Source of the DNA: Paraspadella gotoi
Taxonomy: Eukaryota > Animalia > Chaetognatha
Assembly (NCBI GenBank): GCA_051294375.1
Contig: CM119265.1
Span: forward strand, 10,495,042 to 10,559,041
Length of the DNA stretch: 64,000 bases
Reading direction: 5' to 3'
Below the pieces are notes generated by a model. It was not told where the DNA came from, did no database searches, and was given only the letters and a program-made list of their open reading frames with translations. Shown here piece after piece: positions 9,283 through 43,700 of this stretch; position 1 is the first letter of the stretch, and each line of letters begins with the position of its first letter. The position numbers and the translations under genes are program-made.

Positions 9283-12200
9283 TCAAATTAGCAATCTGGC
9301 CACTTGATCTGGTGTTCTAGGAACAATTCCTTGAGGCTCGTTGAACCCGTTAGACGGATTCGTTATGACGTCGTAAAGAGTATTGTAGGCGCCGTGAATT
9401 AGCTTGGTCGATTTTTGCAGGATCGTCTCTCGAATAGATGCGCTGCGTGCACAGTAAAACAACAAACATGTAAACTCGATAGGTTTAATTTCTCAATTCA
9501 TGCAAACCTGGTAAGAAAAGAAAGTTGAGAAAGCGCGATGGAATCCGGGGAAGCCAGGTAAGAATCGAACTTCATCATCGCGGCCTGAGAAAGACGGAAA
9601 GAATTTCGATAATTCATGCAAAATGCAACCACTTTAATAAATTTCTTTAAAATTTCAAAAACCTTGAGAGCCTCAGATGACATCTCTGGCCTATCTTGGA
9701 AAGGGCCTCTCGGCTTTGCTTGAGCGATCTGAAACGGGACGTTCAAATCGACGGTGGAGAGCACAAGGGAGGCCTGTTGGCTGATCAGCGTATCCACGTG
9801 TGCCTCGGTTTGTGCCTAGTAAAAAAGAAGTTTAGAAATTAGAAAGCTTGACAAATGAATAATTATTATGATTTAATAATTTCATACTTTACTAAGCTTT
9901 AATTAATTTTTAAAGCTTTACAAATTTCGTTTTCTTTATTCACTTGTATAATCTCCAATTGATCGTCCAGGAATTCGAAGACCGTCAGAGTCGTATGCAT
10001 TAAATGAAGAGAATTGATGAGATAGGTCGCTGTGTCCGCTTCTCCGCTCAATGACGAAGCGGCAACCTAGATGGTCGAAAAAATAAAATCGATAAAATGT
10101 AAAAAAAATCATTTTCCTCCCAAAGAAACCCAAAAATTACCTGCACCATCTGCAAGAGGGCATCGACGAGCACGTTGGCGATTGTGCGAAATTGGCACTT
10201 GCGATCTTCGATGGAAGCGATGGAGGCGTCGTGAGATAGAAGAAGATCGCGAAGAAGGCCGAGGCTCCGGGTCAGTGTGCTCGAGGGACTCAAATCGTCC
10301 GGCGGAGAGTCAGCGCGTTCGAGAAGTTTGGAGGCTGCAGTATGTATTTTATAATTATTTTTCTATCCATTTTTTATTTAATTTTTAATAAATTATAAGT
10401 TTTTATATGAACTACACTGAGGCGCAAAAAAAAAAGACCTTTCTTTCACACCGAAAAAATTATATTGGATGGATGAATTTCACTGAGATATAGAAACATA
10501 AAACAAAGCGTCCGAAAGTTATAAGACGTCAAAAGTCGATTGGTACAAAACATCTGACGAGAATAAATTAACTTTAATCAAGAAGAGTCTTCAGCTAATT
10601 TTATATTATAAATATATTATGATAATAAAAAGTTAAACAAATTCAGAATCAAATATCTGTAAAGATAGGTGTCAACCATTTTCAACCTAAATAAAATTAA
10701 AATAAGTAGGTAAACTATATACAAAAACAATCTTTTAAAAATAAAGAAAAAGCAGTTGAGTGATAACTTACCCAAGGTTAATTTCAAAGCTTTTTCACAT
10801 CAAAGTTTTTTCCTTATGGCATCACATGTTAAAGCAGACTAATATAAACTCTTACAATTATATTAAAATTAATTTTTTATCATAAAATTATGTGTTGAAT
10901 TTGAGATAATTTAAAAAAATGATTGTTTTCAATATTTATTATTAAAATGCCATATTTGGCAGCAATTATAAATTATTTTCATAAAAAAGTAATACAAATT
11001 TATTGCCATTATATTATTATTATTAATTCATTATGATTTTGTTAATTCTATATTGTAAATATCAGTCAGAAAAAGAAGTGTTATCAATACTAACCTTTGG
11101 AAATAACTTTTTCCCAATTCTATTTTGAGACTCCGACTTTAAAGTCTTGCTATATTCTACTGATTGAACCGATTCTAATTTTTCTTGCACAAATCGACAG
11201 CTCTTTAAAAGCGCTATACTTTTCATATATATTTTCTCAAAGTTATAAAAGAAATAGTGGTCTATTTAAAGCTACCTAGTGAATTCTTTTTTTTTGCTCC
11301 GCAGTGTAAAATATTAGCTTGAGGGGTATTGAAGGCGTAAAGAAATAGAGGGAAAAACTAATATATTTCACGAAAAGCCAAAAACGAGAGAATGTATCAA
11401 ATATCAAATATACCAAGGGCTGGAGGAGGAGGAAAGAAGAGGAAGAGGAAAATGGGATTAGATATAATAGATATATTTATAATTATTATTATATTATATA
11501 TTATTATTATTATTATATATTTTTGGTTTTCTCCCGAGTTCAGTTTTTTCACACTTTTCTACTTAAGAGCGTTTTCTCTCCCTCCCGGCATATTAACCTT
11601 GACAGTTAAGGGAGTTGAGAAACATCTTGTCGGCCAATCCATGAAGCGCCATCAGCGTGGAAACGAGTGAAGTATCCGACGGTGGCGCGTGTGGCGTCAA
11701 AGACCCGGGGCCCGATCCGGCTTCTGAAATACGGAAAGTGGAACCGGAAACGCAGGAACGAGCGGTCGACGCGTCGGCGCCGTTCGGAGAGTCAAATCGC
11801 GGTGGAGGACCAGTAACGATGCTTTTGACGACGTGAAGATAAAAGTGGACAAGATTCTTCAACTTGAAGAGAGTGATGGCGTCTTGTTCCGTCGTCAAAA
11901 CCTGTGGAGTTTAATAACATTTTTTTTTGTAAAGAAAGATTCACGAGCAAACCCGAGACTGAGAAGGTACGACTGACTGACTTGTTCGACGCGAACTTGA
12001 AGGGGACGACCGATTCCCTCGGTGATGCTGCTCAAAGTCTCGTGGACGATAGGAGCCGAGACAACCGATCCATTTTTCTCTGGGAAAACAAACAGAATCT
12101 TTAAGACTCTTAAATTAAGAGATAATAATTTGGACGGAGGACTTAACCCTAGTGACTAGGGTTTATCTCAATTACTATTATGGTGGACTAAAATCCACCA

Positions 12201-14060
12201 ACCGTTCATCAGTGGCCATTGGTGCCAGAGGCAAGTCATTCTCCTTCCAACCCAAAGGTCCGGGGTTCAAGCCCAGTGGTCACCTAGCAGTTTAGTGGGA
12301 CGGGGCGCTTGACCCGCCTGTAACACGGTGTTACAGCCTGATCCGAAGCTCAGGGACTGCTTATATTGAACGGTTCTGTCATTAACATATATCAATAATC
12401 ACTGTCTCTTCATTGGTGAGCCCAACTCCGAACACAACAGCAACAACAACACTTTCAGGCAACATGCCTCAACCTGGCGATGCACTTTCCGCCCACAACA
12501 CATCAGGCGACATGCCGCAACTTGGTGATGAACTTTCCACCAACAACAACAATTCACTGAAGAGACGCAACAGACTTCTCCCTACGGGAGGGGGATGTAT
12601 GGTGGACTAAAATCCACCAACCGTTCATCAGTGGCCATTGGTGCCAGAGGCAAGTCATTCTCCTTCCAACCCAAAGGTCCGGGGTTCAAGCCCAGTGGTC
12701 ACCTAGCAGTTTAGTGGGACGGGGCGCTTAACCCGCCTGTAACACGGTGTTACAGCCTGATCCGAAGCTCAGGGACTGCTTATATTGAACGGTTCTGTCA
12801 TTAACATATATCAATAATCACTGTCTCTTCACTATCTAGGAAAAAGTATATAACATTTTTAATAAAGGATATCTATTCAAAAACTTGCTTGATTTAAAAA
12901 AAAATCAAAATGTTTTCAAATCTACATTGAATTTCCTTTCAGTTGCTTCCTTTCATTTTTTGTAGGTCAAATCGTTTAGAAGTTGAAGGCAAAAAAATAT
13001 TGTTACTTTAAATAAAAAATATCGAAAAAAAAATATTTAGTTTTCTACCTTTTTTGGTATTTAATTATTTGTTTTTATTTCAAATAGAGTAAATTATTTT
13101 TTAATTTTTTTTTTTAATTTGGTAATGGTAAAGGCCTTGTCCCTTTTTGGTTCAAAAAAGAACTATTATAGCTTTCAAAAAAGAGGGAAAGATGCGCAAC
13201 ATCAACATCGGGGCTGAAAAGAATTGTGTTAAAGATGTAGAAAAATATTTCACTGTCATACTTCAATATGCTGTATGAGGGTTCGTGTTTCCTTAACCGT
13301 TAATTTTTCTACAACGTCGGTTAACCGTTAAAAATCGATAATATAAATGCAAAAAAAGAAGGAAAACAATCAAAACTTAGTATTCGAATCTTATTTCAAT
13401 ACATAGGATGCACAGAGGAAGACACTGAATTAATTATAAAAAATCTTAAAAGCATAAGTGATGAGCGGGGTTTTCCGTCAGTTGCTCACCCTTCTGAGAG
13501 TATCTATATCGTAGGATTTAATGAGTCTTTAGAAATCAAGAACTGGAGGTAAGCAAAAGGTAAGCATCGGTTAACGATAAGATCGACGGATCACGACGAG
13601 AGTTTATGTCCAACATAAGGATCGTCGCAATCGCATAAGAAAAATATGGATTGACGACAAATTTTGATACTAAAAAAAATAAAATTTGAGAAAAGAAAAT
13701 TAAATTATAAACAAAGAAAAATTATATTTTGCGACTGTCAATTAAAAAAAATAATAAAGTACCGAGGAAAATTAAAGTTATAGTTTCTGAAAAAAAAAGG
13801 AAAATTCTTTTTTTTTGTCATTGTCAATTGTCAAATAAACTGATCAGCAGACGCAGCCCTTGTAAAAAAAATTTGAGAAAAGGAAATTAATTTATAAACA
13901 GAAAGAAAAATTCTATTTTGCGATTGTCAATAAAAAAATAATAAAGTACGGAAGAAAATTAAAGTTACAGTTTCTGAAAAATAGCAAAATAATAACATGC
14001 ACGAATGCGATGCCTAATTTTACGAGTTCAATCCTAATTCAATTTTTTTTAAATAAAAAC

Positions 14061-14131
<71 letters not shown>

Positions 14132-17100
14132 AAAGAAATCAAAAGGCAGCAGCAGAAGCAGCAGGAGAAAAGAGAGAAAAAGAAAGACCCCCTGCAGAGC
14201 CAGCTGCAGGCTCGTTTTTTTCCCCTATGTCATAGGGGAATGAATCAGTGACTAGGGAAAAGAGAGAGGGAGAGAGACATGTAATTAAAAGAGAAAAGAG
14301 AAAGAGAAAGAAATATGAAAATAAAAGAGAGAAAAATTGTTTGTTTTGATAAAACGTAAACAAAACATTTAATAACTGTCCAGACTCAATTTTAAGCACA
14401 TCGATGATGAGAAGCTTAGCGATAAAAAATAAAAGTTAACCGAATTTAACCGTTAAAATTAAAAAATTAATGGTTAAGTTAAAAAGAATTTTAGCCGTTA
14501 TTAACGGTTAATTTTTAACGGTTAAGGAATCTCTAATGAGAGCATGCCCAGATAAATGCAGGCAGTAGTCAATGCCAAGGAAAGGCAAACCAAATATTGA
14601 GAATGTTTTACCCATGTTTTGTATATTTTTTATTGAATAAATGAATTATGTTATATACTTTTTTCCTAGATAGAATTGAATGAATGTAAAATTTTATATT
14701 GGTGGTAGCACTTTCATAACATTAAATCTAATGAAGCGAACCTTGGACGTCCCGCAAGAGGCTCGCCGTGAGCTCCTTCTCAGAGGCGACCGCCTGATGA
14801 ACCCAAGCTAACATATCGCCTACGTAGCGAAGAGCGTCATGAGAATGAAGCTCGATGGGACACGGGGTTCCACCTGGAAATATTAATTTCTTTCATTATC
14901 ATAGTCACTGAAGTGGAACAACAGAGTATAAATAACTGAGATGAGGGGGTGAATGATAAATTAAAAATTTTTAAAGAAAATAAAAATACTATGGAACAAC
15001 AACAACACGAAACCTTGATCAATGATCATAAGCGACCATACCTTACTTTATGGTTAACTTTGACCTTGTAAATACCTATTGTTATAGACTTAGTATCTGA
15101 GACTTTTGACTGTTATTGTAATTGTTGAAGAAATAATTCATCTTCACCTGAAAATCGTTGCGTCCACAATACCAAAAAAAATTCAAAAATGGTTCTACAA
15201 CGACTGAAAAGCAGGTCAGAAAAAGAAATAAAAAATAATGAATACTTTTTATTTTGGTTGGAAAGTGGACCGACTGTTGGACAAACTCTTGTTGACAGAG
15301 AGGGCACGAATAAAAAAGGCAAATTTCTCTTCAAAGAAAAGAATAAATAAATGATTCCTACGTACGGAGATAAATTTATTTACCTGGCCCGCCCCTGGTG
15401 AGCGCTTGGATAAATCCACGGACTACTGAGGTTCGTCGAGCCGTAGCGAACTCTGTCAATACGTACTGAAAAAGAACGGGACGCGCGTGTAGGGCGGTCA
15501 TCGCGGAGCAGGTAAGAGAGCGAATCTCCGGGTTGTCGCCGGTCTGACCTGAAAGAGATATTTTTTCTATTTTTATTAAACTAATGAAATAAAAATTTTA
15601 TTAAAATTTAATTCTACAATCTCAATTCGCCCATATAATTTTATTAGTCGAGGATTTATATGTATTTAAAAATTCGCTAATAATTCAAATTCAATTTTTT
15701 TCATTTTTTATTCATCACAAGTTAAAACTCGCTTCGCATTTCTTCCTGAAGCGATCGGTACATCCTCTCATAAGCGGCTTCCTCCAACAAAGCCATCTGC
15801 TCCATAATTTCCAACCCCGCCCGTTGCTGCTGGTTTGAGCGAAGCAGCGCCTTGCAGTCGACGTGGATCCGCATCACCCGCGACAGAGCAGCGAAGAACT
15901 CGGGCGTCAGACGTTGGAGTGAATGGGTGAGGGAGGAAGAGGAAACCGAAGAGCCTAATTTGGAATACGTAGGGAAAAAAAGGTTTAAAAGTACAGTTAT
16001 CTCGCCAGACGTTACTATCAAAGAAAATTAATGAAAAAATCCGGAAAAAAATGAATGATTTATGTAATAGTAATTGATTAATGTAACTATAATTGATCGA
16101 TGTAATAGTAATTGATTGATATAATAGTAATTGATTGATATAATAGTAATTGATTGATGTAATAATAATTGATTGATTATTAATGCAATGATAACCAATT
16201 ATTGATTCGATGATAACTAATTATTAAGATAAAGTGAAAGTTTGGAATCAAAATTTAACAGTTATAACTTTTTTTCGCGATCTATCGACTACCACGAACA
16301 AAAGGGCATTTCGTGACGAGGTGGACCGATATGAGAATCAAAATTTAACAGTTATATCTTGAAAACTATCATATTAGTGAATACTAATCTGTAATTATTT
16401 TTTTTTACAAATAGTCAGTCAGCTTATTTTGTATATAGTACTAAATTAAATAATATCAAAATTTCAAAATATTTTTTTTTAAATTCTGAGAACAGATTCA
16501 GATTCCTCGTTAAAAGTTAATAAAAGAAAATATAAATCTTTTGTAAAAATTATATTATTAAATAAGTTAAAATTATAAAAAACTATATTTTTAAGTTCAA
16601 AATTAAAAATTGACGTCTTAAATATAGTTTTTTACATTTTTAACCAACTTAATGAAAGAATTTTTTTTTAAAAATTTGCAGGAATAAGTTTGATTTGTTT
16701 GTGACAACGATTGGTTTTATTTCAGTTTAATTAAAAAATAAAAAAGAATTATACTTTCTTATATCAACTTTTTGCAAAAAATCCAAATCCGATCTTAATT
16801 TGCAATTTTAAATTTTAGCTTATTATTATTATATATTTATTACCATATATAAATATAGCTCACTGGTGCCCACTAATGTATAAAATTTATAAATAAATTT
16901 ACCAAAGTATTTTTATTAGTTTTTAATTTTATATACTAAATTTTAATTTATTAAAATTTTATTATTTTCACATCACTCTACTAATTATTGATGCGATGAT
17001 AACAAATAATTGATCCGATGATAACCAAATGATTGATGCGATGATAATCATTCATTGATGCGATGAGTCATTTATAATAAATAAAACAAATACGTGTATG

Positions 17101-18480
17101 AGAAAGAAAGAGAAAGAAAAAAAGAGAAAGAGAAAGAGAGAAAGAAAGAGAAAAAGAGAGAGAGAGGGCCAACCGCAGCAGAACTGAACTCGTTTTTAGA
17201 CGACTCAGAAAAAAGAACGATGGAAAAAAAAGAGATATATAATTTCATACAATTGAAATTCTTTGAAACATTATACCACTATATTTATAAGGAAGCCAGG
17301 TACTCTGGGAGTGTCCAAAGTCAGGGGCAAGATAGCTTATTTATTAAATGAATGGATAATTTTTATATTGGTTGTACTAATTTCATAAATATATATAAAA
17401 ATTGTTTTGTAAATAAAACAAACAAATGCGTGTAGCAATATGAAACATGTGATTCGTAATGATCTTGATGATAAGAAGCTATATCTGAATTTTTAGCTTC
17501 TTATGGTGACACACTTTTACAATTTCCAATTGTAAAAAAGCATGACGACAACGGCACGAAACAATTCTAAACGATTATCACGCCAAGATTATCACGGACT
17601 TAAGCCCGTCTGGCGAGATAAAAAGGGGGGGCAAAATGGGGCAAGAAAAAATACTGGATAGGTCAATAAACTCACCCAAAATATGAAAAAATATTTTAAT
17701 CTTTCCTTACCCGGTCTCCCTTCGGCGGTTGGGCTGCCTTTGAGCGCGGTCATCTCTTCCCTTGTTAGCTGGAACTTGTCGAGAAAAGCAGCCATGGCTG
17801 TTTCCTTGAGAGCGAGTTGGTGGTTCTCGCTCTGAAGCTTGGTCGTGGCCTCGATGAGGTCGCGCGTCTGAGATTTGGTCTTCGCCAATCGATGCCTCAT
17901 GTCTTCCACCGATGAGTTCATCGACGACACATCCTCGTAGACTTCCTCAATCTCATTTTGAAAGATGGGGGAAAAAGAAAAAGCAAAAATAAAAAAAATT
18001 TGAAAGCACAAAAACAACAATAAGCAATCTTTGATCTCGTCGACTCTCTCTGTTGTTGTTATGTTTTTCTTCCACACGATCACATAATAGAAAAGAGCTT
18101 AGGCAGTGTATCCCGACTTTAAAATTCATTTCAATTATGTTTTTTTTTCATTATAGTTTCCCGTATGTCCCCTTGAAGTTTTTCAGAGAGACTTGCGACT
18201 GACTCAAGTTCCCACTCCTCACCTTCCTATTAAGCCCTGTCAGTAAGGCAACGAATTCCTCGTTCATCTCCACGTTACGTCGTTCCACTTCTGTGCGGAG
18301 GTTTCGTCGGGCTCCAGCAGAGTTGACTCCATAAAACTCGGACAATCCTTTAAGCGGCTCCAGCAAGTCGCGGTTGTGCTCCAACTTAGTTTCTAGAATT
18401 TTACCGATTTTGCGCGAGAGTGGATTGGTCTGCGAAGAGCCCAAATTCCCCGAGGACGCGGTGCTCGTCATAATGCTCAT
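9283..18480 (-). CDS. COG6: Conserved oligomeric Golgi complex subunit 6 (multi-exon, TE-filled introns)
   Basis: Exons read [75 protein letters not shown] (14738-14873), [13 protein letters not shown] and a C-terminus [12 protein letters not shown]. Confidence 0.93.
10415..11306. mobile_element. Tc1/mariner-type MITE, copy 1
   Basis: TA|CACTGAGGCGCAAAAAA ... TTTTTTGCTCCGCAGTG|TA terminal inverted repeats. Internal sequence is shared with 53825-54262. Confidence 0.75.
11318..11420. repeat. Dispersed repeat fragment, inverted copy at about 26575-26680
   Basis: cttgaggggtattgaaggcgt..aaatagagggaaaaa..gagaatgtatc..aatatacc is a close reverse complement of 26575-26680. Confidence 0.6.
12214..12284 (+). 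promoter_or_regulatory. tRNA-like segment (Trp-like, Gly alternative) with Pol III A/B boxes, 5' LTR
   Basis: A box TGGTGCCAGAGG (12220-12231), B box GGTTCAAGCCC (12264-12274), acceptor-like pairing GGCCATT/AGTGGTC, loop containing TTCCAAC and 3' end GGTCACC. The anticodon stem is degenerate, so it is not a functional tRNA. Confidence 0.7.
12286..12361 (+). ncRNA. Twister ribozyme, type P5, 5' LTR copy (cleavage-site A+1 changed to G)
   Basis: P5 AGCAGT/ACTGCT; GA-CGG; U^GA (12310/12311); CCC-GC; P3 CTGTAAC/GTTACAG; P4 CCTGA/TCAGG with loop TCCGAAGC. Confidence 0.72.
12633..12703 (+). promoter_or_regulatory. tRNA-like segment with Pol III A/B boxes, 3' LTR
   Basis: Identical to 12214-12284. 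Confidence 0.7.
12705..12780 (+). ncRNA. Twister ribozyme, type P5, 3' LTR copy
   Basis: AGCAGT tta GTGG GA CGG ggcgct TAA CCC GC CTGTAAC acggt GTTACAG CCTGA TCCGAAGC TCAGG g ACTGCT. Predicted cleavage is between 12729 and 12730. P2 needs a 1-nt bulge. Confidence 0.8.
13459..13615 (+). mobile_element. Solo LTR-like element (TG...CA), short copy
   Basis: TGATGAGC...TCCAACA flanked by TSD TAAG. The empty site AGCATAAGGATC is seen at about 23955, and a longer homolog at 21609-22004. Confidence 0.75.
14063..14127. repeat. (GA)n microsatellite
   Basis: About 32 perfect AG units. Shorter ones occur at 22132-22170, 34935-34967 and 60853-60877. Confidence 0.95.
15975..17624 (-). mobile_element. HINE/DINE-1-like element, family 1, copy A
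   Basis: Subterminal inverted repeats TATCTCGCCAGACG (15998) and CGTCTGGCGAGATA (17607), A/T-run insertion site and internal AATAGTAATTGATTGAT minisatellite. Confidence 0.65.
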
Positions 18481-19392
18481 ATTTTATCAATGTACATTGT
18501 ACAGTATCAGCATTCAGAAAATCTAAATGGGAAAATAGTACATAATAATACAAAAGCTTACAAATTAACATAGGTAAATTTTCATGCTAAAATCTAATTC
18601 ATACTCGTAAAAGAGACTTTATAACAAGAAAAAACAAACCGATTCACATCAATGTCTATTTTAGGACTAAACGAAAAAAGCCAGAGGTTTTATATTCTAA
18701 TACCGGCCAATGTAGAATGATGGCAATATTGCTGTTGTTAAGTTTCAAATAAATCTGACCATGAATATAGAAAATATTAGCCAAAATCTTCGGAAAATCC
18801 ACCCCTTCTTTGGAAGATTTTCGCCATAGAAGATTTTTTCCGAATCTGATTCCCGGTTGAAAACTCTTAGAAATCAGATCGTTTACTTTTATTTTAAATA
18901 AAAATTTCATCAAAATGGACTAATTCACTTTACCATGATCGTATCATATCAAAATAACCAAATAAAATGTAAAGAAAAATTTTGAGAGCCCTTCAGACAT
19001 ATCATATATATCATATCATATCATATTGAAATAACTAAATAAATTTTTTTTAAAAATGTTGCGAGCCGTTCAGACACTTAGCTAGAGGATTCCTGAATTT
19101 GAAATCATTTGTGGAACCGAAACATACTTCTATCACATTTATAATGTTTTGAAGGGAAAAATCCCTTTCATTTCTATATAAAAATGTTGGTTATTTGACA
19201 AGAGAAACAAAAGGCGAGCTCTTCATGTAGCATCTTATATGTTAGGCTAAATTTAGCTAACATGATGATAAGGGGAAAAAGATGATTATAGTAGTATGAT
19301 GATGATGCTCAAAGATGATCAAAGCTGTCAACGATAAGTCTGGTTTTTCTTACATTATTTTTATTAACTTTTTAAAATTAGAAACCAGACAA

Positions 19393-22737: not shown

Positions 22738-25700
22738 TCAACAGAGCGAAGATTTTAAGTAGACGTTTCCATCGTCGTCGACGCTCATCCTTTCTCCATC
22801 GACAGAGGGCGCGGAGAGAGAGTCTGCCGTCACTCCGTCCGAGCTCGGACCCGTGTTCCGACCGGAGCCCACGGGCTCAAAGTTAACGTACGCGGGCGTT
22901 GGTCCCGGGGAAATTGGCGCCACGGTCGACGGATCCGACTCTAGGTAGACATTTTTTTTGGAACGACGATTCGACGACGCGAGTCGAGTCAAGTCAGAGT
23001 CGGAAGCCGCGGCGAGATCGAAAACGGCGTAAGGCGACGAAGAACTCGACGCATCGTCTTCCGATAAATCGTCCTCGGAGGCCATCGACAGGACGCGAGC
23101 GACGGCGCGAAGGGAATTGAAGGCATCCGAGATTGAAGAGGAGGAGGAAGAGGAAGGAGAAAAAGAAGCGGAACGAGTTTCGAGGTCGACGACGAAGCCG
23201 AGAGCGGAGAGAAGATCGACGTGAAGAAGAGAAACGATGGAAGAGATGGAGAATGGGGAGGAGGAAGAAGATGAGGATGAGGAGAGCGAAGCCTCGTCAC
23301 AGACGTTGCGGAGAATACGGAAGAGAGAAGAGGAAGAGCAAAATTCCTCCGTCAAAACCGAAGCGAGTTTTTGGATCACGTGATACGAAAGAGAGAGAAG
23401 AGCCTCGATCAGAGCGAGACCTTTGGGAAGTAAAAGGAGCGGATCCGAGAAGGGTGGAGAAAAGAAAGAGGGATGGGAGAAGTCACTTTCGAAACGAAAT
23501 CCAAGCTGAGCTAAAAACTGTCCCCAGGTATGAAGAGTTGACAGATCGGGAGTTGAAGGTACAGAGTTTGACTGAGAGAAAACGGGATCGTGCTGTGAAA
23601 AAAAACCGGAATTAGTTGACAACCATATACTATCTAGGAAAAAAGTATATCACATAATTGTTGAAAAATTTATATTTTTATAAAAATTATTAAAAAAATA
23701 TATAAAATATTCTTAATATTTGATATGCCCTACCTCTGCATCGATTACTGCATGCATTTGTCTGGGCATGCTTTTGTACAACGAATTTAGGTATTACAGT
23801 GATATATTTTCCACACCTTTAATGCAATTCTTTTTAACCACGATATTGATGTTGCGCGTCTTTACCTCTTTTCTGAGAGCTATAATGATATTTTTTTAAA
23901 CAAAAAAAGTGCAATGACTTTAGCATTGCTAAATTAAAAAAAAAAAATCTTAAAAGCATAAGGATCTCCGCAATGACGACAAATTTTGATACTAAAAAAA
24001 TCAATTTGAAAAAAAAAAATTAAAACCAGAAAGAAAAAGAAGAAAAGAATAAAAAGAATAGAAAGGAAAGAAAGGAAAGAAAGAATAGAAAAAAAAAGAA
24101 TAGAAAGAAAAAAAGAATAGAAAGAAAGAAAGAATAGAAAGGAAAGAAAGAATAAAAGGAAAGAAAGAAAAAGAAAGAATAGAAAGAAAAAAGAAAAGAA
24201 AGAAATGAAAGGAAAGAAAGAAGAAAGGAAAGAAAGAAAGAAAAAAAAGAAAAAATAGAAAGGAAAGAAGAAAATAGAAAAGGAAAAAAGATAGAAAGGA
24301 AAAGAAGATAATAGAAAGAAAGAAAGAATAGAAAGAAAAAAAAAAGGGAAAAAAAAGAAAATTAATTTATAAAACAGAAAGAAAAATTCTATTTTGCGAT
24401 GTCAATTTACCAGTTAAGTTTTTAAAAAAAAAAAAACAAAAAACCAAAAAAAAACTTTTTCATTTTCAAAAGAATAAATATAAAACAGTAAATAACTTAT
24501 TTTCGAGTTTAATTTTTAGCAAGTAACATTATTGAAGGTACTTTTGTTTTACTTTAAGCACGCATAAGCGAGCAGTTTGATTGAATGCGACCTCTCTAAA
24601 CACTGTCAGCTTTCCCAGACAAAAGACAAAGTGAAACTTGAATCAGACTGACGAAGTGAAGTAAAGACTAAAGTGAAATAAAAACCCGATGTTACTATAA
24701 CAAAATGATAACATGCACGAATGCGATGCCTAATTTTACGAGTTCAATCCCAATTCAATTTTTTTTTTAATAAAAACACAGAGAGAGAGAGAGAGAGAAA
24801 GAGAGAAATCAAATGGCAGCAGCAGAAGCAGCAGGAGAAAGAGAGAGAGCCCCTGCAGAGCCAGCTGCAGACTCAAAAGGCAGCAGCAAAAGCAGCAGGA
24901 GAAAATAAAGAAAAAGAATAAGCCCCTGCAGAGCCAGCTGCAGACTCGTTTTTTTCCCTATGATTATGAATCAGTGAATAGGGAAAAGAGAGAGGGAGAG
25001 AGACATGTAATTAAAAGAAAAAAAAAGAGAGAGAGAAAGAAATATGAAAATAAAAAAAAGAAAATTTGTTTGTTTTGATAAAACGTAAACAAAACATATT
25101 TAATAACTGTCCAGACTCAATTTTAAGCACATCGATGATGAGAAGATGTATATAAATTTTCAGCTTCATAAACCCAAATTTAATCATAAAAAGGCGATCT
25201 ATAATTTGGAATAGCGATTGCGACGATAAAAAAATAACTAACATTCGAAATAAAAACTAATTTAATACTAATAATAATAAAAATTAAATATGGTTTTTTA
25301 TCATTTTTCATTTGCAGTAATAATCTTTTTTTACCTGTTACTTCTAAACGATTTGACCTACAAAAAATGGAAGGAAGCTACTAAAAAAAAATGATTTAGA
25401 AACATTCTGATTTTTTAAAAATCGAATAAGTTTTCGAATAGATATCCTCTACTAAAAATGTGATATACTTTTTTCCTAGATGGTACAGTAGAGTGATGTG
25501 AAAATAATAAATTTTTTTTAAATTTAAATTTAGCATATAAAACATGAAAACAAATACTTATTTTTTAATTTTATACAATAGTGGTAGAGCCAAACTTGAT
25601 TTGGGAACCTTCCAAAATAAAACTTTTACTGGACCAGAAATTTGTTATATGGCTAGAAGCACTAATAATTAATTTTTTAATATTTATTTATTTTCGACTG

Positions 25701-28700
25701 TTTCGCCTGAAGCTTTTACCTATTGTTTAAAATTTAAAATTTACCAGAAAGATCGTAAAAAACCATAACAATTTTTTTGTGGCGGTATGGCGGGGGGACA
25801 TGTGTGATGCCTGGGGTGTGAGGCATCTCCCGACAGCTGGCGCTCAGGGCTTTGGACCTGCAGTGACCACCCCATGTCACTGGCGTGTTTATGACGACAC
25901 CATCACACTTTAACCAGCGTGACCATGAGGGGATTTAACCCGGAACTCACAGTTGGTGAAAGAGTACTGAGCTGTCCAAGCCAATGGGACGAGCTGAGTT
26001 TCAGCAAGCTATACGGGAGGCGAATTTAGGATTCGCCACAGCGGTTTTATTTTTCCCGAGCGCATAGAAAAAATAAATCTCCCCACATCGTTCAGCATAA
26101 ATCATTAAATTTAAATTATCCCCTAAAAACTTACTCTCTCGAGATTCAGCCACGCTCGGTGCATGAAATTGTAAACCGCTTTCAACTCGCGTTTTTGCAT
26201 TTCTTCCTCGCTCGCCTCCGCCTCGTTCTCTGACTTTTTCCTCGTCGTCAAAGCCGTCATCGCGGCGCGCGTCAACGCCCTCTCTCGTCGTTCCAGCCTG
26301 ACCTCGGAACAGCGCGAGATGAGATTAAGCGCCGCCCACGACGCCACATCGGAATCGAAGCCACCGCCGATGGCGTTCGTCATGTAGTGGGCGTGGCGTT
26401 GGGATTCGGCCAAAGCGGCATGGACGGGTTTCCGATCGATGAGGTTTTTGTAAAAATGTTTGAAGAGTGTCTTAGTAGCGGTGGTTGAGACGCTGAAGGA
26501 AAAAAAATGATAAAATAATTAACAGAGGAGGATTTCGCCTGCCGTTCCATTCTCCTCTTCTTTCCTCCTCCTACTGCCCCTCGGTATATTTTGTCTCGCG
26601 ATACATTCTCTAGTTTCTACTCTTCGCGAAATATACGATTTTTTCCCTCTATTTCCTCACGCCTTCAATACGCCTCAAGATTAATAAATTAATTCGCTAC
26701 ACTATAAGTATGAATAATTTAACACTCACGAGGGAAATAGCGAAATGACGACAGCGCCGACACCTGCGTCCAGAAAAGCGTCTACCAGAAGCTGCGGCGA
26801 CGGTGACGCCTGTGACGACGACGACGTTTCGTGTCCGAAAGACAATACCACGACTTTGACGGCATCGAGACAAAGAGCCGCAATCTCTGTCGGCGTCAAA
26901 AAAGCGCCAGAATGAAGCGCCGTTTCGTCAAAATTCTCGGACGGCCTCGATGTCTCGACATCTAAATCCGGGAGGGAGTCTTTTGGATGGGCAAGAACAA
27001 TAACGGGAGAGGAAAAGATGTGGAGACAAACGCAGTTGAGATGAACGACTTCAGACTCTGGAAGAAGCTGAAGTAGAGAAGATTTTGTAGCCGCGGAACC
27101 TAAACGTAAAACGTAAAACGTAAAACGTGTCCTTTTACTAAAGTGAATTTCATAGACTTACCAAGAAGGGGCCTTTGATTAAACATCTCGGCGATCATCG
27201 TCGCTTCGGCGACGGCCAGGGGCGAATCCTCAGTAGCGTTGGACGGGTTTCCGATAGCGATAATTGGAATCTTCGCCTCCACCGCTTCGGCCGCAGAAGC
27301 CGCCGCCTCACCGCCGTCTGAAAGACTTTGCTTCATAACCAAATCGAATCTTTGGAAGAGAAATGGGTCTTTCTCCGATTTTCGTAACAAAGCAAAGGGA
27401 AGGAGAGACAAAGAGTCAGAATCCCCAACGACGACGATTTCCAGTTTCGGCTTAGAATTCGCCTCGGCGACTTCGAGATGCCGCTCGAACGGTTCCAGCG
27501 TTAACCGGTAGAGGGCGCCGATCGATGTCGGGTCGGCCAGTTCTGGAGATTCGTCCCGACGCCGACCGCGAATAACTGCGTCGTTGACGTAAGAGACGCA
27601 GTTGGAATCCGTCGACGTTTCGTTGTTGCTCGACACCGTGAAGGATTGACGAAGATGATCCGTCAGACTCGGCGTCTTTTCGAAAACTCCGCGCGTCGGC
27701 GAATCGAGCGGCGCGCGATGAGAGGCGACGACAACGCCGTCACGAAGCAACCAAGAGAGGAGATGATGATCTGCGAGGCTCAAGTAGATGACCGGATGGT
27801 CGGTGTTTAGTACACGTTGGTCGTCCGAAGTTCGTTTCCCGTCTCGTCTTGAATCTTTCAGGTAAAGACTCGCTCTCTTCTCGGCCATCGACAAACTCGC
27901 TTCCGTTTCGTTCTTTAACATCATGGCGTTTTGCAACGCCTCGTAGGCTCGACGTAGTTTATCAACCAATTCCGCGCAATTTTTTTTCACGGGGTCCAAA
28001 CCGTCGAGGATTCTCGACTCGGCCGCCTGGCAGGCACGCGTGAGGGCGTCGAGGGATCGCGACAACGCCTCTTCGTCATCCGCGACCGATTTGGCCTTTT
28101 CCCAGAGGACGAATCCCTGGAGAAAAAGAGTGGAGTGATTCGAAGAGTCATCGATACGAGACAGAGTCTCTGCGTGATGAAGCGCCTTGTCGAAGTCGCT
28201 CGCTCGCGTCCAGAGGCGCGCGAGTGAAGAGAGCGCCATCGATTTGGCGACGGCGTCGCCGTTTTCAACGGCGAGAGCGAGATGCTCCTCCTGAAAATAA
28301 ATAAAGATCAGTTTCATTTATAATTTTGGTGATAAAAAAAAAAAAAAAAAAAAAACAGGAATAATGGTACCCTTACCTGCCACCCCAACGCCTCCTCGAT
28401 TTTGCCGGATTCTTCGCAGACGAGGCCCAGGCCTCCGCAGACCCTCGCCGTCAAGCCTTTCGTTAGTGAAGATTCTGGGTCCAACCGTTTTAGGAGAGGC
28501 AGCTGCGCCTCGTGATAAGACTTGGCAGCTACGAGATCGACACGTTGAAAAACCGAGGCTGACAGGGGGAGAGGGGGAGAGGGGAGGAGAGAGAGAGAGT
28601 ATCAGAGTTAATAATCTCGAACCTCAAAAGAAAATTCGTTCGCTGCAATAACAAAAACCTTTTCAAAACATTCTTTGATAAATCTAGTAAGATTTCTCAC

Positions 28701-37735: not shown

Positions 37736-40700
37736 TTAGAAATCCGCAATGTTGGGTAAAAGGCTTCTTTTGATTGATTTTTCCAACTCTTTGCGATAAT
37801 GATTGGTGTAAGAATTGACGGGAGGGCCGGATCGATTCGAGGGCGAGGCGATGGGAGTGGAAGTTCCCCGCGGAGGACGATTGATCAACGCGGAATTGAG
37901 TGGATCGTAGGTGGAGATGACAGAGTTGAGGTGATTGTAGTTGGGAGTAAAATGGGATAAAAATGCGGGGACGGTGTGATTCGTTACGTCGCCGGCCGCG
38001 CCGTGAGCCTTGCGTTTTGGGGCCGACGGAGTACTGCACCGACTTATCTCTTCGATCTCTTCCAGAAGCTCGTTCCTCGAGCGGTCGTACTCTTCTCGGA
38101 GATTATTGAGAAAATCTTCGTTGCTGGAGGCGACATTCGGAGCCGGAGGTTGGGACTCGCGATCTTCGAACGCCTTGGGTACCGCGACGTTCATTTCCTT
38201 GGGTCCAATGATTCCGACCCCGCCATCGACCAAGTTCGAGTGAAGAAGTTTCAAAGGAGGCACCGATGCGGCCCTCTCCTCCTCCGGTTTATCTTTAGAA
38301 CGCAACAACTTTTTATATCGTTTCTCCAAGGACTTGTGGTGCTCGACTTCCTTCTCCAAAAGAACTGCCTTGTCGTAAGACGCTCTCACCGTATCCCTCT
38401 CATGCTCGAGTGCTTCCTGCAGCTGCTTGAGGTTGGCCTGCATAGTTTGAATCGCCAGCTCGTATTGCTGTCTCTCTTTTTCAAAATCCGAGGCCATGGC
38501 ATGGAAGGAGCCTCGTTCGTTGTTAATGTCCTTTTGTTTTTTTCTCATGTCCTTGAGATAAGATTTGATGTTGATGTTTTCCTCTTCCAATTCCCTCCTC
38601 TTTTTCTTCTCCTCCTCAAAGTGCTTCTCGGCGCTCTTCTTCCTCTCGTTGGCCTCCTTGATCCGTAGTTCCCAGGTCTGCGACTCAAGAAGCTTTTCTT
38701 GGGTCTGCCTCGTCATCTGCGCCATCTTCAATCCCTGGACAGCTTTGGAATTCACCTCGGCCTGGTAAGCGTCGTTGATCGTTTGCATTTCCTTGTCCAA
38801 GGCCAAGTTTTTGTTTGTCTCCTTGGTCAAACGAGAGCTCAGTTCTTCCTTCTCGTCGATGAGCGATCGATTCTGCTTTTTCAATTGCTTTCTTTCGCTC
38901 TCCGCCTCGTCGAATCGCTCCCGGAGAGTTTCGTATTTAGAAGTTTGCATTTCAAGGGCACCGGCCGTTTTGGCCAAGTCTACTTGCAACTGATCTCTCG
39001 TTCGGTTTCCTTCGCCCTCTCGGCTAGAAAGGTCGCGCAAAGCCGCGGTGGCTTCCAAAGATTCACGTTCCGTTCTCTCGACCCTACCTCGAAATTCCTC
39101 GAGATGCTTTTCCGTGTTGCTCAATTTTTCTTGCGTAATCTCCAACTTGCGAGAAAGCTGTTGATTGTCCTGCTTGAACACGTTTCGTTCTTCGCTGATG
39201 TTCTTCAAGTTATTCTGCAATTCGTCCATTCTCAAAACCTTTTTTTCCAACTCAAACTTTTCCAATTCCAAATGTTTTTTCATATCTTGAGCGTCTTGGT
39301 TCTGTTGAATGAGACTAGATAACTGATTCTGCTGAGCGTCGATTCTTTGCAAAAGACTGTCCATTCCCTTTGTGTAGGCTTCTTTGGCGATGGTCATTCC
39401 GTCGATGACTTTCGCGTCGACGCTTCCAAAATTCTTCGCTTGGGCTTCGAGCACGCTCAGCTGCTTGTTTAACTTCTCGTTTTCGAACTTTAACCCAAGA
39501 ACTTCGTCATTTTTCGACGAAAGTTGAGCCTTCAAACTTTGACATTCGGCCGCTATCGAAACTTTAACGTCGGTCCAATCCTCTTGCAATCTGGCGATTT
39601 TTGCTTCGTACGATTCTGTGACGCTCTTCACTTCTTGGTTGCTAACGTCGGACCTTCTCTCATATTTCGACAATTCGCTTTGCAAAGATTCCAGTTTATC
39701 TCTTAAATTCTCTTTCGTCTTTTCCAGGCATTTTATCGCCTCCCTCATGTGTTTACCCTCTTTATCTTTCTCTTCGGCTAATATTTTTCCTTTGTGAACC
39801 TCATCCCTCAATTTTTGTTCTGCCTCGTTTTTAATGTTGTTCATTTTCTCCGAATCCCTGACGCTCTGATCGTTTTTATTGTTCATCTCTTTCACCAACG
39901 ATTCGTATCTGTCTCGCTCCCTCATGTGCTCTTGTATCTTCGATTTCAACATGCTAATTTCCGAATTAAGCGCCATAATCTCGGAGGCTTTTTCTACCTC
40001 CATCCTGACAATGTCCGCGCTCAGCTTTCCCTTTTCCTCTCGAACCTCCATCATTTTTTTCAGGTTTTCCTCGGCTTCTTTTTTGGAATAATTTCTCGTT
40101 TCTTCCAGCTGCTTGTGCGTCTTTTCCATCTCGTCCTTCAACATACGAAGCTCCTGCTCTGTGTGTTTCAGCTTGGTCTCTGCCTCCAACTTGCTCCTCG
40201 CCGCAGACTGCAATTCTTCCATCACGTTGCACTTGTTCTCACTCCACTCTTCCTTCACGCTCAACATCTTGCACTCAAGATCCTTGACCTTTTTCTCCAG
40301 CTCGAAATTGGCGTCTCTTTCCTCGGTCAACTCACGCGAAAACTGATCCCTCTCCATCTCCACATGCCTCAGGTTGGCCTCCAACGAAGCCACCTGAAGA
40401 CCCAAATCTCTGAGGTTCATCTCCAGCGTCTGCTTCTCTTCCATATCGGAACCGTATCGATTGTGCCTCTCCATCAATTGGTCCTTCAGTTTCTTCTGTA
40501 AGGTTTCCGCGTTCTTTCTTAATTGGGTCTCTTCCTCCACCTTCTTACGCATCTGCGTTATCTCGTTCTCCAAAGACAAGTTCTGCTCCTCCAATACCCT
40601 GTACCGCTTTTGCCCATCTTCCGACTGGCGCTTGAGCGATTGGATTTGACCATCGAGTATCTTGGCCTTGGCAAGGCTGGCCTCTTTGGCCCCTCGCTCC

Positions 40701-43700
40701 TTGGCCAATGCTTCGGTCTGTTGATGGAGCGCGTCCAGGATCGGGGACTTCGTGGAATTAGACAAAAGTGATTTGTCCTGCCCCTCCCCCGCGCCGTCGA
40801 GCTTGTGGGCCTGAGAAGAATTGTACCCATACATTTGCGCCAGATCAGGGTTTAAAGCGGAAGCCAGTAGAGCATGATTGGAAATTATTGGGTAGCTGTC
40901 ATCTCCGCTCGAATCTGCATCCGTAGTGAATCGTCCGCCATCGGATTCTCGTCCAACGGCGTTGTTGGTATTAAAATTAAAAGGAGGGATGGAAGCTTTC
41001 ACCTCCGAGTTTTTCTCAGCTGGTTCTATTCCGCTGACCACATCTTCATTATCGGATTTATTTTCCGCAATCTTCGGGGTTGCCATGGAGATGGGCGTGG
41101 TGTTCTCTGTCCCAGGTTGGGACGGGTACATGGAACCAAATCCAATAACAGATTTCTCAAGAAGCGGTCTCAGCAAGGAAGTTTTCCCAGTCGGAGATTC
41201 CGTCATTCCACCGTCAACGACCGGCGTGGTCAGCGGGGATACGCCGGCACTGGTTTTACTATCGTTCAAAAAGTCAATCTCTCGTCCAGTGGAAAGAATG
41301 TCTTCATCGTCTTCGTCCTCATCGAAGCTCGAGGCCAGAGTGCTTCGCGAAAAGCTCCTGTTAGCAACCGGATCAACCGTGATCTGTGGCGTCGCCGGAA
41401 GCCGTCGTCTCTCCGGCTTTCTCGGCAATGCTATTTCGTTGGCGTAAACCAAAGGCGGCAATTCTTTGTCGGCTTCGTCCTCTTCCCCGGCGCCGTCTCC
41501 CGACCCAAAAGCGGCCGTTGGCGGCAAAGCCTCGACCTGTGAGGAAGCTCGTCTCGACAGCGGAATCCCGGACTGAAGCGAGATCGGCGAAACGCGAGGG
41601 ATAGAAAGCTCGTCGTCCCTGCGCGCCGATTCGCCAAGAACCACATCCTCCTCAAAGCCTAAATCCAATTTGGAAACTCCGTTTGGTCGACATTTAACGG
41701 GCGAGGAAGAGCGGGCAAGTGCGGAAGGTACCGTCATACCGACGAGAGCAGGCGATTGAGGAATCAGGGCGTTTTCGAGGTTAAGAAAATCCGCGAGAGC
41801 ATCATTGTCGATGTCTCCTTCTTCGTCGTCATCTACGTCGTTAAACACGCCGCCAATATGGGACGCGTCCTTTTCGCTCGTTCGATCCAGCGTTGACGCC
41901 TTCCCGTCGCCCTCGTCCCCTTCCCAGATGCAGTAACCCCGTTTAGAGGAGGATCTAGAGTTCCTAGCGGCGTCGTCGTCGACTATGGGTTCCCCGCCTC
42001 CACCGGATTGTCGCATCTCTTTCTGAGCCTTGGCCTTGGCGGCGTTGACGCGGGGCATTGGGCGGGGAGGAGACGAGCCGTTGGCCATGACCGTCGGCGC
42101 TTTTTCGTCGTCGTCGTCATCGCAATCCCACTTCTCGGAATCGAGGCGAGAGATGACAGAGTTTGTGTTGGGAACCTCGATATCTGGCGCCTCTTTTGGA
42201 ATCTCGACGGGTGGCGCTTGTGGAGGCAGCGCGCTCGGCGGTTTCTCAGGACTATTCGTGGTGACTCCGGAATCGAATATAGAGGAACGCGGGATCTCTT
42301 TATCTGCCGTCTTTATCTTATGCTCCGGTGAAGGCTTCTCTCGTTTCTCTCCAACGACCATCATCTGAAAATCGTCGTCGTCGTCCTCGTCGTCTTCGGA
42401 CAAAGATGAAACGTCCTTGTCCAATTCGTCGGCGTCGATGCCAAGATCGGCGAGGAGAGACCGGCGCCTAGTAGAATCGGTGGCGTCTGCAGTCGAAGAC
42501 GCCGCCTTTTCGATGCTCGCCGGAACTTTCTCCGGTTCGACTCGTTTCATCGTCGCCTTCGGCGTAACGGCAAAGTCGACGTCGTCGTCCCAATCGGATT
42601 CATCGTCCATTGATTTTGCCAAAGGCGTCGGCTTGGTTTCGTCGACGGCGGAGGGAGATGGCTTGGTTATGATGGGCGGAGGTTTCGTCTCGTCGCCGAT
42701 AAGATCATCGTCGTTGTCGTCGTCCCACGAATCGAGGTTGGAATCTTGCTGCGGCTTTTGCTGCTGCTGCACGAGCCGGGGAATTTTAGAAGCGGCGTCG
42801 CCGAAGGACGAGACGCTGCTGCGGGCAGAGGAGGGTTGGCTTCCGCGGGGGCTGATCTCTGAGGCGTTGGAGACGCGACGCGGTATTTTAGAAGGAGACG
42901 AGGATCTAAGAAATTAAAAAGTTAAAGAATTAAAGTTAACCAATTAACCCGTTAAAGGGTTGAAGTTAAAAGTTTTAACAAGAACCTGTAAGTCAATTAG
43001 AGAGGACAAAAACCTTTATTCAACGCGATCTTGTGCGTGTGCCTACCTTGATCGTGTCGAAGCTGTCGCGATTTCCATCGGTGTCGATACAGCCGAACCT
43101 CGCTCGAGCTGCGCCGTCTTATCCGCCGGAGCCTTGCCGCCGCTGTTCGCGCCCATCGTCGATGGACGTTTTCTCGATGGCGTCTGTTCCTCATCCATCG
43201 ACGGCTGTTTGGTCTTCGAACCGGAAGATGGTCGAGCGTTTATGATATCGTCAAGATCGTCGTCGTCATCGTCGTCGTCGCCGTCTTTGGACAGGAACTT
43301 GAGCAGATTTAGTTGCGGCTTGGGTTTTTTCTCTTCTTCGCTCAAACTAAAATTCGAGGAACATTTTGCCGGCAAAACAGAGGCTGCCGATTTTTTCCTG
43401 TCTTTTTCCATCCAGGAATTGTCGTCAAAATTGTCGTCGGAATCATCATCGGGGATCAGCGGCGACGTGGGAGCTTCCTTCGGCTCAGTCGCACCGATGG
43501 AACCTTCGGCGGAAGACTTTCTTCTGATCGAAGCACGAGAAACTCCGAAATCTCCGACGTCGTCATCGTCGTCATCGTCGTCTTCTTCGTCAAACGATTC
43601 AGATTTTCGTAGAGAATCGTTTTTCAAATTCAGCGATTTGGGGGCGGTAGTGGCTCCAACGTCCTCGTCGTCGTCAACGTCGTCGCCCCAACTATCGACG

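Follow-up and report, generated by a model that had tools for sequence, protein, structure and literature searches.

Within a 64,000-nt stretch of the chaetognath Paraspadella gotoi (contig CM119265.1 of assembly GCA_051294375.1, positions 10,495,042 to 10,559,041), the whole of which we call the window, lies a 653-bp element (12179-12831, + strand) with a long terminal repeat (LTR) at each end. On balance, we narrowly favor the view that it is a young, high-copy terminal-repeat retrotransposon in miniature (TRIM) of the Helenus type, with LTRs that carry a tRNA-like segment and a type-P5 twister fold, and that it would work as an LTR retrozyme. The observed footing of this view is the anatomy of the element, its abundance, the type of its primer binding site (PBS) and target site duplication (TSD), and the conservation and covariation of the fold, and from these we infer promoter use, cleavage, ligation and a helper.

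It is virtually certain that this is an LTR element. Two 234-nt LTRs (12179..12412 and 12598..12831, offset by 419 nt) agree at 233/234 positions, the termini are TA...CA and the insertion is bounded by the 4-bp TSD CTAT (12175..12178 and 12832..12835). The 185-nt internal region (12413..12597) contains a tRNA-Trp type PBS (12414..12423) and a polypurine tract (PPT; 12587..12595), in which the G runs are longer in other copies, and is non-coding, the longest ATG open reading frame (ORF) being 48 aa. An earlier sequence-only reading of the window had described these same 234-bp LTRs, PBS, PPT and 4-bp TSD without an enzyme gene, and all of this is confirmed. A predicted 10-bp pairing joins the end of the LTR (12403-12412) to internal positions 12558-12567, and the PPT is located in a predicted 8-bp hairpin (12575-12593); both could be packaging or priming structures. 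Around 12438-12477 and 12538-12555 the internal region also contains a degenerate repeat that includes runs of CAA, and 71-72 nt of it are missing from some copies. Helenus, or the proposed TRIMp3, comprises TRIMs with tRNA boxes and 4-bp TSDs in six animal phyla (Kojima, 2024, PMC10886601; statements on cited papers refer throughout to the accessible part of each text). By its sequence the element can be placed in this type, as it is shorter than ~1.3 kb and has two LTRs, a PBS of Gypsy type, a PPT, A and B boxes, a 4-bp TSD and no coding capacity.

Each LTR is built in the order of a 7-bp hairpin at the 5' terminus, a tRNA-like segment and a twister fold. The hairpin (12181..12200, equivalent to 12600-12619 in the 3' LTR) has a z-score of -3.6, and 0/200 shuffles were as stable. 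The twister folds occupy 12287..12360 in the 5' LTR and 12706..12779 in the 3' LTR, and the latter, compared with the Rfam RF02684 consensus, has a complete core. Its parts are P5 (12706-10/12775-79), P2 (12716-17/12732-33), GA (12718-19), the pseudoknot T1 (12720-22/12762-64), a 6-nt P1 segment (12723-28), UAA (12729-31) with the predicted cut at 12729/12730, the pseudoknot T2 (12735-36/12767-68), P3 as a 19-nt hairpin (12737-55), a 5-bp P4 (12756-60/12769-73) and L4 (12761-68); the GC motif is also present and both pseudoknots are Watson-Crick paired. The twister motifs and the cut are thus where the sequence-only reading had placed them. We searched with a descriptor that calls for GA, YAA, GC, the L4 loop, a Watson-Crick T1, at least two P2 pairs and at least three P4 pairs and leaves P1 free. 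It matches the 3' LTR, 5/5 phage twisters and 0/7 chance-motif loci, a separation that is not independent, as the descriptor was designed around the element and core motifs guided the choice of phage controls; none of 20,000 LTR shuffles or 60 window shuffles matched. The GACGG/UCCG form of T1 is a natural one, carried by seven phage loci that all pass the Rfam Twister-P5 threshold. Seven of the 12 phage Twister-P5 loci have a C-G swap in this pseudoknot.

An independent match came from the descriptor unprompted, in a solo LTR of 255 nt at 25786..26040 (-) that belongs to a second, diverged family. This LTR has TGT...ATA ends and the TSD CCGC (26041-44 and 25782-85), and, as in the first element, a hairpin leads to a tRNA-like segment and then to a twister, the last lying at 25836-25918 (-) with a predicted cut at 25891/25890 and a 4-bp P2. 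BLAST found no link between this LTR and the first element. All 23 homologous pairs are held between the two families, with 15 unchanged, eight double changes and none broken, a count obtained by anchoring on structure and weakened to that extent, since MAFFT did not align the twisters structurally. The double changes fall in P5, P2, T1, P3 and P4, while GA, UAA, GC and L4 are retained. Inside the first family, variation of at least 1% is seen at 10 positions of 12716-12790, and it exceeds 4% only at 12744-12746, the apex of P3; the remaining seven positions show C>T or G>A changes at 1-2.4% in one run and do not touch GA, UAA or L4. Among the differences listed between the family majority and this copy, a list outside which there are 155 lesser entries, none of 12 falls in the 64-nt core (P ~0.02). 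The youth of the family makes this second kind of conservation weak evidence. Judged from both comparisons, the twister fold is in all probability kept under selection, and the twister of the earlier reading gains support from the other copies and from the 23/23 pairs.

The family is dispersed, high-copy and young. Contigs that cover the 95-base ribozyme stretch number 5,992, 820 and 338 in three public runs of organism A, for which summed contig depth does not yield a copy number. At both LTR ends the flanks are diverse, with loose ends of low agreement (0.40-0.55), which points to many dispersed copies. Organism B and a biofilm metagenome gave only 1-2 contigs at a depth of 2-5 and so no evidence of a wider range. 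In run X9, a presumed RNA run, the ratio of summed depth between LTR and internal region did not fall below that in DNA, a measure too poor to support a conclusion. In the window, neither nhmmer nor a relaxed descriptor found further members beyond the two elements described, and motif scans for relatives elsewhere gave only chance matches without stems (four viral-contig loci and three metagenome-contig loci).

In the cycle that we propose, the tRNA-like segment of the LTR would act as an RNA polymerase III (Pol III) promoter, and both twisters of an intact copy would cut the transcript to release a 419-nt unit that contains the PBS and PPT and lacks an R repeat. Full-element copying would be possible from such a unit only if it is a circle, as has been argued for the cut-to-cut unit of plant retrozymes (PMC4918200). 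The 419-nt RNA would then be circularized, presumably by RtcB ligation, and copied with a CsRn1-like Ty3/Gypsy helper, and by virtue of the LTR format a promoter would return to the 5' end, whereas cleaved monomers of the Schistosoma element Sm-alpha lose theirs. A circular intermediate seems somewhat more probable than not. The helper is suggested by the PBS, identical over its 10 nt to the start of the CsRn1-clade PBS, and by the TSD, as this clade has the PBS TGGTGA(G/C)CCCGT/A for tRNA-Trp, 4-bp TSDs and TGT...AAA or TGT...ATA ends (PMC2582038). A CsRn1-like element is therefore the likely mobilizer, in line with the Gypsy-type partner that the sequence-only reading had assumed for a non-autonomous LTR element. 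Self-priming by the tRNA-like segment was also considered and rejected, because its 3' end matches the PBS by a few bases only.

Several observations weigh against this cycle and against an active twister. In the 3' LTR, P1 is a 6-nt segment that forms no hairpin and P2 is weak, with two Watson-Crick pairs and one across a bulge. Rfam gave no twister match for the element or its halves (E ≤ 5 and E ≤ 10) or for the window (gathering score), so that the check proposed in the earlier reading, a search with the twister-P5 model, came back empty; the element lies below the 37.6-bit threshold of the Twister-P5 (RF02684) covariance model. The most likely reason is the missing P1 hairpin together with the long P3: 12 phage loci fetched by motif, with P1 segments of 17-30 nt, all score as Twister-P5. 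The scan of the element found no hammerhead either, its one snoRNA match (E 5.4) being due to chance. Without pseudoknot energy, the twister-compatible fold of the 3' LTR is 8.1 kcal/mol above the minimum, compared with 1.6-7.1 kcal/mol for 10 phage twisters and 4.4 kcal/mol for the second family. In the full transcript, ViennaRNA predicts that the two LTRs do not fold singly and instead pair through their palindromic P3 arms (0.95 and 0.86) and a swapped P5, with P1 not involved. Twister cleavage without P1 has been described as inefficient (PMC8501958), although P1 was dispensable in tested twisters (PMC5408937; PMC11662667 section 32) and P2 defects were tolerated (PMC11662667 section 32). 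Finally, no reverse transcriptase (RT) or integrase family of a helper was found by a Pfam scan of 17 of the 22 window ORFs of at least 200 aa.

A further difficulty concerns this copy itself. Its two LTRs differ only at the position immediately 3' of the predicted cut, which holds G12311 in the 5' LTR and A12730 in the 3' LTR, so that the 5' twister reads UGA instead of UAA. This +1 adenine is the general acid of twister catalysis, and its change to U or C abolished activity (PMC11662667). G at +1 also stabilizes a competing hairpin. Given a G at the catalytic adenine, the 5' twister is predicted to be impaired and this copy is likely cut only in its 3' LTR, which also counts against the proposed cycle. 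In the family, A at +1 exceeds 99% and G is below 1%, there being no such entry among the variants listed. The one difference in 234 nt thus coincides with the predicted ligation junction, which may be due to chance, to selection or to a mistake made by RT at that point. For intact copies, cleavage is quite likely.

These features of the copy at hand, an altered 5' ribozyme and an intact 3' one, would equally suit a twister that is active as a 3'-end former, a reading that we consider unlikely. Here the 3' LTR cuts while the 5' one is slow or uncut, and a linear 517-nt template (~12213-12729) with a 98-nt R arises without a circle and is copied by the usual strand transfers of LTR elements. 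Delimited by the promoter start and the cut site, the LTR would have a normal U3-R-U5 layout; cleavage could be slowed by competing folds, and most Helenus elements need no ribozyme. However, as both LTRs derive from a single template sequence and +1 is A in more than 99% of cases, the 5' copy should normally cut, and in the nascent 5' LTR P5, P3 and P4 are predicted to fold locally (0.85, 0.91 and 0.94). U5 would moreover come from the 5' LTR, so that the defect of a dead 5' copy would presumably appear in both daughter LTRs.

The retrozyme cycle that we favor also depends on how its RNA is made. The tRNA-like segments (12213..12284 and 12632..12703) contain a GGTTC-type B box (12264-12273 and 12683-12692), an acceptor-like stem and a degenerate A-box-like sequence (12220-12231 and 12639-12650), which together form a putative Pol III promoter. 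ARAGORN called no tRNA in the element and Rfam gave no match to this segment, as with most Helenus elements, whose segments are likewise not callable as tRNAs. With the family-majority letters the anticodon region is what we take to be Gly(CCC)-like rather than Trp-like. The spacing of the boxes is tRNA-like and a GGTT-type B box is common to both families. Relative to the family majority, this copy keeps the pairing of its acceptor-like stem through a double change (12632/12701), and a wobble-to-Watson-Crick change at 12699 is seen in the loose ends. On the other side, the A box is without its conserved A, and most copies have T where the B box calls for a purine (12688). The sequence-only reading had further pointed to the lack of TTTT in the sense strand of the element and to a TTTT run in the flank. 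Both are correct, the first run 3' of the element being at 12856..12859, where it may serve as a Pol III terminator for this copy, yet the absence is not beyond chance: TTTT was lacking in 480/2000 dinucleotide and 961/2000 mononucleotide shuffles of the 419-nt unit. With 24-48% of shuffles also free of TTTT, this argument carries little weight. On balance, use of the putative promoter by Pol III is probable.

The non-consensus B-box base and the pair-keeping changes of the acceptor-like stem, which imply constraint at the RNA level, would also fit a retrozyme fed by Pol II through read-through or an LTR promoter, in which the tRNA-like segment would be an RNA structure that aids packaging, recruits a ligase or protects the ends. 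For Helenus itself, transcription by Pol III is unvalidated (PMC10886601). We nonetheless hold this version to be distinctly improbable, given the tRNA-like box spacing, the GGTT-type B box kept in both families and the precedents of Cassandra, a TRIM whose use of Pol III is validated, and of Sm-alpha, which combines a Pol III promoter with a hammerhead. A passenger origin, in which the fold came from the 5' end of a short interspersed nuclear element (SINE) or RTE-type element inserted in the LTR of an ordinary TRIM and has no present role, is highly improbable: a SINE insertion was proposed by Kojima as the origin of Helenus (PMC10886601), RTE and Perere-3 5' ends carry twisters with P3 starts that resemble that of the element (PMC7761336, PMC8501958), and a vestigial P1, a weak P2 and the missing Rfam match would agree with decay, but the retention of 23/23 pairs and all catalytic nucleotides between families that BLAST does not link is unlike neutral decay.

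Returning to the Pol III-driven retrozyme, the short P1 invites a more speculative extension. The P1 stub is self-complementary, with a duplex energy of -8.3 kcal/mol (-2.7 kcal/mol for the second family, whose 8-nt P1 segment is one base off a perfect palindrome), and P3 is palindromic. Equally self-complementary hexamers occur at 9/229 places in the LTR. Hammerheads whose palindromic stems are stunted are known to cleave as dimers (PMC6765202). In the ViennaRNA ensemble of the full transcript, inter-LTR P1 pairing has a probability of 0.0, which gives no support for a P1 dimer. It is conceivable, if rather doubtful, that the element belongs to an animal class of Pol III-driven LTR retrozymes with an interchangeable ribozyme, a twister here and a hammerhead in the Helenus-2 elements of Synergus, and that the twister is a natural dimer in which the P1 stub and palindromic P3 pair between LTRs, so that cutting occurs only with both ends present and the ends are held for ligation.

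The surroundings of the element can be described briefly. A COG6 gene with many exons spans 9286-18483 on the minus strand, with COG6 profile positions 1-84 mapping to 15379-16027 and positions 143-197 to 11596-12155, both on that strand, and the element lies in one of its introns in antisense orientation. COG6 pre-mRNA therefore lacks the ribozyme strand, and a role of the element as part of a 3' untranslated region was rejected on the same exon mapping. An AT-rich repeat is present in inverted copies at 12831-13105 and 25226-25484 (78% identity over 277 nt); one of these lies directly against the element's 3' end, and each of the two twister elements adjoins a copy. Elsewhere in the window, a 1725-aa open frame (37736-42913, -) has no Pfam match at E 0.001, and the TK2 and RFX proteins share ~50-65% identity with named animal relatives, none of them close.

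The closest known systems each share a part of this design. Like the element, Helenus TRIMs are non-coding, shorter than 1 kb and have A and B boxes in each LTR, and some hymenopteran families have a tRNA-Trp PBS (PMC10886601). They already include tRNA promoters in LTRs, so that the novelty claimed for this feature in the sequence-only reading does not hold (PMC10886601). The element differs in its TA...CA ends and in its predicted ribozyme: in the accessible text of that paper no ribozyme is described for Helenus, "twister" has zero occurrences and "hammerhead" and "ribozyme" appear in a reference only. The L4 motif of the element's twister was not found in the accessible text of the Helenus supplement, where line breaks could hide a match. 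In two gall-wasp LTRs, Helenus-2_SyJa-LTR and Helenus-2_SyUm-LTR, which belong to elements with a Trp-type PBS, we noted by eye that the tRNA-like segment is followed by a three-stem CUGAUGA/GAAA core, a layout present at two of the eight "ctgatga" places in the supplement. These LTRs appear to carry a type III hammerhead, unmentioned in the part of PMC10886601 at hand, at the position taken here by the twister. The CsRn1 clade of Ty3/Gypsy shares the first 10 nt of the PBS and the 4-bp TSD, while its TGT...ATA ends recur only in the second family; its members are autonomous (PMC2582038), whereas the element is without gag and pol.

Plant LTR retrozymes are likewise non-coding, with a 4-bp TSD, a PBS and a PPT, and their one ribozyme per LTR and Ty3/Gypsy helper correspond to what is predicted here (PMC4918200, PMC7761336). 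They have a type III hammerhead, a tRNA-Met PBS, LTRs of ~350 bp and demonstrated circles of 600-1000 nt, whereas the element comes from an animal and has a twister fold, a tRNA-Trp PBS, a tRNA-like segment and a predicted unit of 419 nt. Sm-alpha, a SINE-like element of Schistosoma, has a Pol III promoter followed by a ribozyme, as is proposed here, but it is non-LTR, uses a hammerhead and needs tandem copies (PMC6765202). Perere-3 shares twisters with a poor P1, but these are of type P1 and stand at the 5' end of a non-LTR coding element (PMC8501958). In a 2026 preprint, LTR retrozymes are presented as mainly plant and hammerhead-based, with twister unmentioned in the accessible text (10.64898/2026.07.22.740005), and animal retrozymes are described as non-LTR (PMC7761336, 10.64898/2026.07.22.740005); a review also notes type III hammerheads in insect elements not yet published, and truncated twisters at the 5' ends of RTE elements (PMC7761336). 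Our literature search, in which subscription journals were thinly covered and Repbase was outside its range, found no paper on a twister in LTRs. Compared with type-P5 twisters (RF02684), the 3' LTR has the same order (P2-GA-T1-P1-UAA-P2-GC-P4/L4), both pseudoknots Watson-Crick paired and the full core, but it differs in a long P3, a weak P2, a score below the Rfam threshold and a P1 segment of 6 nt, or 8 nt for the second family, where the phage loci have 17-30 nt.

The new part is the type-P5 twister fold behind the tRNA-like segment, the latter being already known in TRIM LTRs. This would be a very abundant form of twister that Rfam's model misses, and it bears on the use of Helenus promoters by Pol III and on whether a twister without P1 acts naturally as a monomer or as a dimer. 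If the reading is true, twister ribozymes gain a defined role in LTR elements, and a twister-based LTR retrozyme in an animal would mean that the circle-based LTR cycle, so far associated mainly with plants and hammerheads, arose again with another ribozyme.

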